From Escherichia coli (GTDB taxonomy: Bacteria > Pseudomonadota > Gammaproteobacteria > Enterobacterales > Enterobacteriaceae), in assembly GCF_003334815.1 (NCBI RefSeq), contig NZ_QOWO01000078.1: DNA of 4,207 nt, one strand, 5' to 3'. Shown here piece by piece: positions 4,077 to 4,207 of the stretch. Numbering within the stretch: position 1 is the first letter of the stretch; every line of letters begins with the position of its first letter. A program made the position numbers and the translations under genes. The notes below the pieces were generated by a model. It was not told the origin of the DNA and ran no database searches. It saw nothing but the letters and a program-made list of their open reading frames with translations.

Positions 4077-4207
4077 TTACTTACGAATGCCGAAATCCCT
4101 GATGTACCGGTTCATCCAGTACCCGGCACAGTCCTCAAAATTCCAGGAGCGCCAGATCAACGTGCCATCCTGACGGACAACCAGGCGAAAATGCGTTCCC
4201 TGATCAT
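4077..4207 (-). CDS. 3' end of a small upstream gene (partial, 5' end beyond the window); possibly a DUF905/YkfF-like small protein
   Basis: Minus-strand frame is open for 42 codons from the window edge to TAA at 4077..4079 and translates as [42 protein letters not shown]. The other two minus frames stop earlier (4157..4159 and 4135..4137). The tail resembles, from memory only, the C-terminus of DUF905-type small proteins found in plasmid leading regions and CP4-type islands. Same strand as the downstream operon. Confidence 0.4.

Follow-up and report, generated by a model that had tools for sequence, protein, structure and literature searches.

An open reading frame that runs off one end of a 4,207-nt stretch of Escherichia coli DNA (contig NZ_QOWO01000078.1, assembly GCF_003334815.1; hereafter, the window) raises the question of whether it belongs to a genuine gene and, if so, in which setting that gene is expressed and what its product might do. 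The original prediction, made from the letters alone, assigned the frame to the DUF905/YkfF-type family of small proteins, which were described as accompanying ssb and ParB-like genes in leading regions and CP4-type islands. The gene is already known, given that DUF905 is annotated in thousands of plasmid records and that the F plasmid orthologue has been studied for the timing of its expression. On the function of DUF905, the window adds nothing beyond the databases and the literature, and its value lies in anchoring an IncI-type leading region.

A DUF905 gene at the window edge

The peptide originally quoted for the window edge, and its placement at 4077-4207, are exact on the minus strand. 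Reading from 4205 to 4080 yields 42 sense codons ending in DFGIRK, followed by a TAA stop at 4079..4077. In terms of the complete gene, the window (4077..4207, minus strand) begins at the second nucleotide of codon 35 and runs through codons 36-77 to the TAA, an assignment based on translation, Pfam, the match to PDB 2HJJ, and annotation in identical plasmids. Codons 1-35, including the start, fall outside the window, and we supplied this missing 5' part from plasmids with 100% identity to window positions 3900-4207. A megablast search with the same segment returned at least 5000 plasmid records (PLSDB), 114 of them at 99% identity or higher. In the identical plasmids, the frame stays open upstream to an ATG, without an intervening stop or frameshift, and forms a 77-aa ORF with a GGAG Shine-Dalgarno motif 7 nt before the ATG (a feature of these plasmids, not of the window). 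Residue 9 differs among them, being Q in pSE11-1 and H in pCFSAN004175, so the N-terminus of the window's own copy is not exactly fixed.

A random frame would stay open as long as this 43-codon edge frame with a chance of about 13%, and the significance of the frame accordingly comes from homology, not from its length. The 42-residue window fragment alone matched Pfam PF06006 (DUF905) with E=1.5e-21 over model positions 28-70 of 70, and the completed 77-aa ORF matched it with E=1.2e-34 over positions 2-70 of 70, such that the HMM search proposed with the original prediction did reveal DUF905 similarity. The completed ORF also matched phrog_8779 (E=1.2e-34), and phmmer aligned its residues 11-76 with residues 7-73 of the chain in the YkfF structure (2HJJ; E=2.1e-22), the helix-three-strands-helix arrangement of the predicted fold matching that of 2HJJ as well. 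The family assignment thus held for both the fragment and the completed ORF, in sequence and in predicted fold. All ten residues that are invariant in a 30-sequence alignment of the family (E34, D35, D36, F41, R42, L43, W56, N67, I70 and G74) are present in the completed ORF, with those from D36 through G74 located inside the window fragment. In the identical plasmids, this stretch is annotated as 'DUF905 domain-containing protein', followed by 'ParB/RepB/Spo0J family'. The dN/dS ratio between the window-type gene and the F plasmid copy is 0.33, a value that covers the IncI versus F comparison only, the CP054213 copy, which has indels, having been left out.

Together, the Pfam, PHROG and 2HJJ matches, the invariant residues, the annotation, and the dN/dS ratio place the window gene in the DUF905 family. 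We consider it established by sequence comparison that the window frame is the 3' end, 42 codons long, of a real DUF905 gene for a 77-aa protein, with the first 35 codons taken from near-identical plasmids; in IncI plasmids, this gene corresponds to yfjA (yubL) of F and ykfF of K-12. That the frame opened by chance, or is a decaying pseudogene without a product, appears extremely improbable. Just 42 codons are visible in the window and the laboratory tolerates loss of the operon, as such a reading would have it, but homology E-values of 1e-21 to 1e-34, the dN/dS of 0.33, the solved structure of a homologue, the intact 77-aa ORF in identical plasmids, and the production of a fluorescent fusion of the F orthologue in transconjugants all argue against it.

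The family is small and of narrow range: clustering at 50% identity gives 202 DUF905 clusters among 1.84 billion representatives, and the named members come from Enterobacterales. Scans of the DUF905 protein yielded no meaningful family in NCBIfam and no defence-family match in PADLOC, and informative relatives of its fold were not found. A link between DUF905 and DUF987 (YeeT/YpjJ/YkfH, proposed to be antirepressor-like) was rejected at an hhalign probability of 0.07%; in the K-12 annotation, YeeT, YpjJ and YkfH are DUF987 proteins and YkfF is the sole DUF905 member. Apparent SSB-DUF905 'fusions' among the longer members proved to be frameshifted translations, in which ssb and DUF905 occupy different frames with out-of-frame junctions, and the one match suggesting fusion of a DnaE-finger domain to DUF905 looks like a chimeric contig.

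An operon of an IncI-type leading region

Adjacent to the DUF905 gene, the window carries a gene for a 652-aa ParB-like protein of the yfjB/yubM/yfhA/'parB2' type (2057..4015, minus strand), identified as an ORF with Pfam matches (ParB_N, E=7e-6; HTH_ParB, E=3e-7) and by annotation in near-identical plasmids. It starts 61 nt downstream of DUF905 on the same strand, with a ribosome-binding site (AAGGGGA) and an ATG at 4015..4013 read directly from the sequence (4013..4032, minus strand). Next on this strand are psiB, encoding the conjugation SOS inhibitor (1568..2005; ORF and near-identical plasmid annotation), psiA (852..1571; ORF and annotation), and a hypothetical 198-aa gene of the ygaA type (259..855, within an ORF spanning 259..888; the CDS at L002:7233-7829 of the pCFSAN004175 locus, here L002, maps to 855..259). 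The start of psiA overlaps the psiB stop by 4 nt (1568-1571), and the hypothetical gene overlaps the psiA stop by another 4 nt (852-855), which suggests translational coupling in an operon.

Over its full length, the window shares 99.8% identity with the Salmonella plasmid pCFSAN004175 (IncI-gamma/K1, MOBP, MPF_I), in which the order is an antirestriction gene, DUF1380, two hypothetical genes, ssb, DUF905, the ParB-like gene, psiB, psiA, a hypothetical gene, ardA and, further along, nikA/oriT, all on one strand and pointing towards oriT. The window itself contains the 3' part of DUF905, the ParB-like gene, psiB and psiA, with ssb located just outside. Strand and order are shared by pCFSAN004175, pSE11-1 and F, and the direction is towards nikA/oriT or traM. 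The company of ssb and a ParB-like gene that had been anticipated for leading regions was seen in this order in pCFSAN004175 and in F, and at least 5000 records of IncF and IncI plasmids have DUF905 next to a ParB-like gene. With the ssb-to-psiA block of F being homologous, the leading-region reading, which the DUF905 gene had been expected to anchor further, is now firmly anchored: the window is the leading region of a conjugative plasmid, of the IncI type.

The closest characterized counterpart is YfjA of F (YubL, WP_000005990.1), which we take to be the protein named 'UPF0401'. Like the product of the window gene, it has 77 aa (65% identity, no gaps), and its gene similarly lies between ssb and a 652-aa ParB-like gene, upstream of psiB, with a homologous ssi/Frpo-type element upstream of ssb. 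The backbones differ, IncI-gamma/K1, MOBP and MPF_I for the window versus IncF and MOBF for F, as do the two proteins at their first ten residues and at several positions on the surface. The same operon is also found in the IncI1 plasmids p1ESBL and p15ESBL (Benz et al., PNAS 2023), where the 77-aa gene is called ykfF and the 'ssi3 operon' has the order ssi3, ssb, ykfF, parB-like, psiB, psiA, ygaA. There, the ParB-like gene is annotated at 2049 bp with a 34-nt overlap with the 3' end of ykfF, whereas in the window the ParB-like frame is closed on its upstream side by a TAA at 4036..4034 and cannot extend into DUF905.

Several plasmids carry damaged versions of this operon. Compared with L002, pSE11-1 (NC_011419.1, L001 ~6575) is missing the 293 bp of L002:3157-3449, which include the ribosome-binding site of ssb and ~85 codons from the 5' end of that gene. 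What is left of ssb follows immediately after the ssi hairpin, and the downstream DUF905 gene is intact. In NZ_CP024481.1, an IS21-family element (ISEc12) interrupts the ParB-like gene and the 3' part of DUF905 is identical to that in the window. Two other plasmids with a window-identical DUF905 stretch have the ParB-like gene unannotated as a CDS. The interrupted and unannotated ParB-like genes fit reports of frequent inactivation of the operon.

Predicted expression from a single-strand promoter

Upstream of ssb, outside the window, pCFSAN004175 contains an imperfect palindrome of about 300 nt (L002:2840-3150) with a predicted single-stranded DNA fold of -94.4 kcal/mol (z=-10.8). A hairpin-forming element of about 325 nt is present in three dispersed copies in this leading region, at L002 2800-3125, 9147-9467 and 12013-12336, the dispersed copies being 87% and 80% identical and all located outside the window. 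In its core, the L002 element has ~80% identity to a pair of F sites, one of them upstream of ssb, and the two sit where Frpo2 and Frpo1 are expected. Judging from the sequences, the three L002 elements match the published ssi3, ssi2 and ssi1 of ColIb-P9 in number and placement. A search for a sigma-70 consensus promoter between the ssi element and the ParB-like gene found none.

Published work on related plasmids shows how such an arrangement behaves. In F, a YfjA-sfGFP fusion becomes visible before single-stranded to double-stranded conversion, peaks at ~5 min and then disappears (Couturier et al., PMC9849209); it requires Frpo2 and is undetectable in donors, and fusions of Ssb, YfjB and PsiB behave in the same way in transconjugants (PMC9849209). 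For pESBL, an IncI1 plasmid, six leading-region operons were shown by RNA-seq and 5' RACE to be induced up to ~500-fold at 15 min from single-strand promoters including ssi1-3 (PMC12672017).

By analogy, DUF905 would be the second cistron of a leading-region operon comprising ssb, DUF905, the ParB-like gene, psiB and psiA. On entry of single-stranded DNA, the imperfect hairpin of ~300 nt that precedes ssb (named ssi3 in IncI plasmids and Frpo2 in F) would mimic a double-stranded promoter, so that the operon would be transcribed ahead of complementary-strand synthesis and fall silent once the plasmid is double-stranded. Early Frpo2-dependent expression has been demonstrated for YfjA of F only, and zygotic, single-strand-promoter-driven expression of the window gene is well supported by its homologues.

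DUF905 in islands, conjugative elements and phages

The DUF905 gene recurs in three kinds of incoming-DNA modules, namely plasmid leading regions, CP4-type islands and the early small-ORF blocks of podophages. The association with CP4-type islands in the original prediction was correct in that YkfF of the K-12 CP4-6 cryptic prophage (2HJJ, solved by NMR) is a chromosomal member of the family. Its gene lies between ykfB and the antirestriction-like yafX and, unlike the window gene, has no ssb or ParB-like gene nearby; the protein is basic (pI 8.4), in contrast to the plasmid copies, which are acidic (pI ~5). More generally, DUF905 in CP4-type islands adjoins an antirestriction KlcA/YafX gene, and an island-type metagenomic contig has the order DUF905, Antirestrict, RadC. 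In large conjugative elements, DUF905 is found among small ORFs beside the type IV coupling-protein gene. Early small-ORF blocks with DUF905 occur in the Cronobacter podophage vB_CsaP_Ss1 (orf55, L009 856-1233) and in a related metagenomic phage (L007 2118-2528), and one of 50,697 phage records has a DUF905 homologue. The phage members bear a C-terminal extension of 60-70 residues, and a Pfam search with the extensions on phage and metagenome members gave no match. Contexts of this kind, in which a ParB-like gene is missing, show that this neighbour is not obligatory. No conserved upstream partner of the YkfB/YfjT type was found across the DUF905 contexts, the upstream proteins not being homologous.

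A second CP4-type element of K-12, CP4-57, contains the pseudogene ypjI (L005 9546-9817) immediately ahead of the antirestriction-like lfgA/yfjX, a position equivalent to that of ykfF in CP4-6; ypjI may be a decayed DUF905 copy.

A divergent plasmid copy was found in CP054213.1, where the order is ssb, DUF905, a ParB-like remnant, psiB and psiA. The remnant (L013 7001-7581) encodes 93 aa and consists of the start of the ParB-like gene fused to its C-terminal tail.

What the DUF905 protein may do

No function has been assigned to any DUF905 protein in the literature, Pfam or PHROGs, and in this respect, too, the original description of the family still applies. The product would be a 9-kDa, mildly acidic, single-domain protein with a helix-three-strands-helix fold that lacks a catalytic signature and is predicted to carry an invariant E-D-D turn together with exposed Trp, Phe and Arg residues. 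It is probably neither an enzyme nor a partition protein. On our model, it would act stoichiometrically, binding to some macromolecule in the new host while the plasmid becomes established, and would belong with PsiB, ArdA and KlcA in the broad class of anti-defence or stress-damping accessories. The absence of enzyme and defence-family matches and the recurrence of the gene in modules of incoming DNA are what lead us to a binding protein. With DUF905, PsiB, ArdA and KlcA have in common a small size, early expression from leading regions, and genes that lie on the same strand and in the same islands; they show no relationship to DUF905 in sequence or fold, and the likeness is confined to the inferred mode of action. 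An anti-defence role would accordingly be assigned through guilt by association alone, and we propose it with low confidence.

As a whole, the account that combines a DUF905 gene, its zygotic expression and a product that binds a partner during establishment seems to us reasonably probable. Its molecular step, a non-enzymatic binding protein that acts transiently in establishment, is put forward tentatively. Published phenotypes are subtle: in F, deletion of Frpo2 abolishes YfjA production, yet the conjugation frequency on plates is unchanged (PMC9849209), and in one clinical host, transfer rose when the IncI1 ssi3 operon carried loss-of-function mutations (PMC10104558). Considering these data, any role of DUF905 would be conditional or subtle.

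Several more specific roles can be envisaged. DUF905 might be an establishment or anti-defence effector, common to the plasmid, CP4-type and podophage modules, that neutralizes a host factor conserved in Enterobacterales or cooperates with SSB on the entering single-stranded DNA, a possibility that we regard as doubtful but worth stating. We consider it unlikely that DUF905 instead works specifically with, or regulates, the ParB-like protein encoded next to it (YfjB/ParB2), even though it could, for example, modulate the DNA binding of that protein or its nuclease-like N-terminal domain. The adjacency of the two genes across IncF and IncI records speaks for such a partnership, as do annotations in which they overlap (PMC10104558) and the CP054213 plasmid, whose DUF905 has lost D35, D36, R54 and W56, residues invariant elsewhere, alongside the reduction of the ParB-like gene; this coincidence hints at a functional link, but it is a single observation. 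Motif-intact DUF905 copies without an adjacent ParB-like gene (in K-12 CP4-6, the metagenomic island and phage early regions) point the other way, as does the plasmid in which DUF905 retains a 3' part identical to that of the window despite the IS21 insertion in its ParB-like gene. It is likewise improbable, in our estimate, that DUF905 is a dsRBD-like nucleic-acid binder that works alongside SSB and has as its target structured single-stranded DNA or RNA from the incoming plasmid, such as ssi hairpins or leading-region transcripts.

Returning to the establishment binding protein, DUF905 is among the most widespread leading-region genes of enterobacterial resistance plasmids (at least 5000 PLSDB records), and the family is switched on within minutes of DNA entry; identification of its target would better explain how resistance plasmids become established.

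A conserved hairpin between the DUF905 and ParB-like genes

Between the two genes, the window contains a GC-rich hairpin (4046..4070, minus strand) with a 9-bp stem, TGCCGGACG / CGTCCGGCA, and a 7-nt loop. It starts 7 nt past the DUF905 stop and has no U tract, and the predicted RNA fold has an energy of -20.5 kcal/mol (z=-3.3). True terminator-like hairpins with U tracts follow the chromosomal/island and ICE copies of DUF905, a difference that is apparent for K-12 ykfF in particular. An Rfam scan of the window and the 14-kb homologous locus produced no match. Among the IncI and IncF variants, the stem is invariant and the loop and flanks vary, and the stem of CP054213 contains one compensatory pair change, from G-C to U-A. 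This combination of an invariant stem, a variable loop and flanks, and a compensatory change suggests selection on the structure of the hairpin, a lead that draws on few independent variants. Lying between the two cistrons, the hairpin may act in RNA stability or processing or as a partial attenuator, and it might set the expression ratio of ssb and DUF905 to the downstream ParB-like gene, psiB and psiA.
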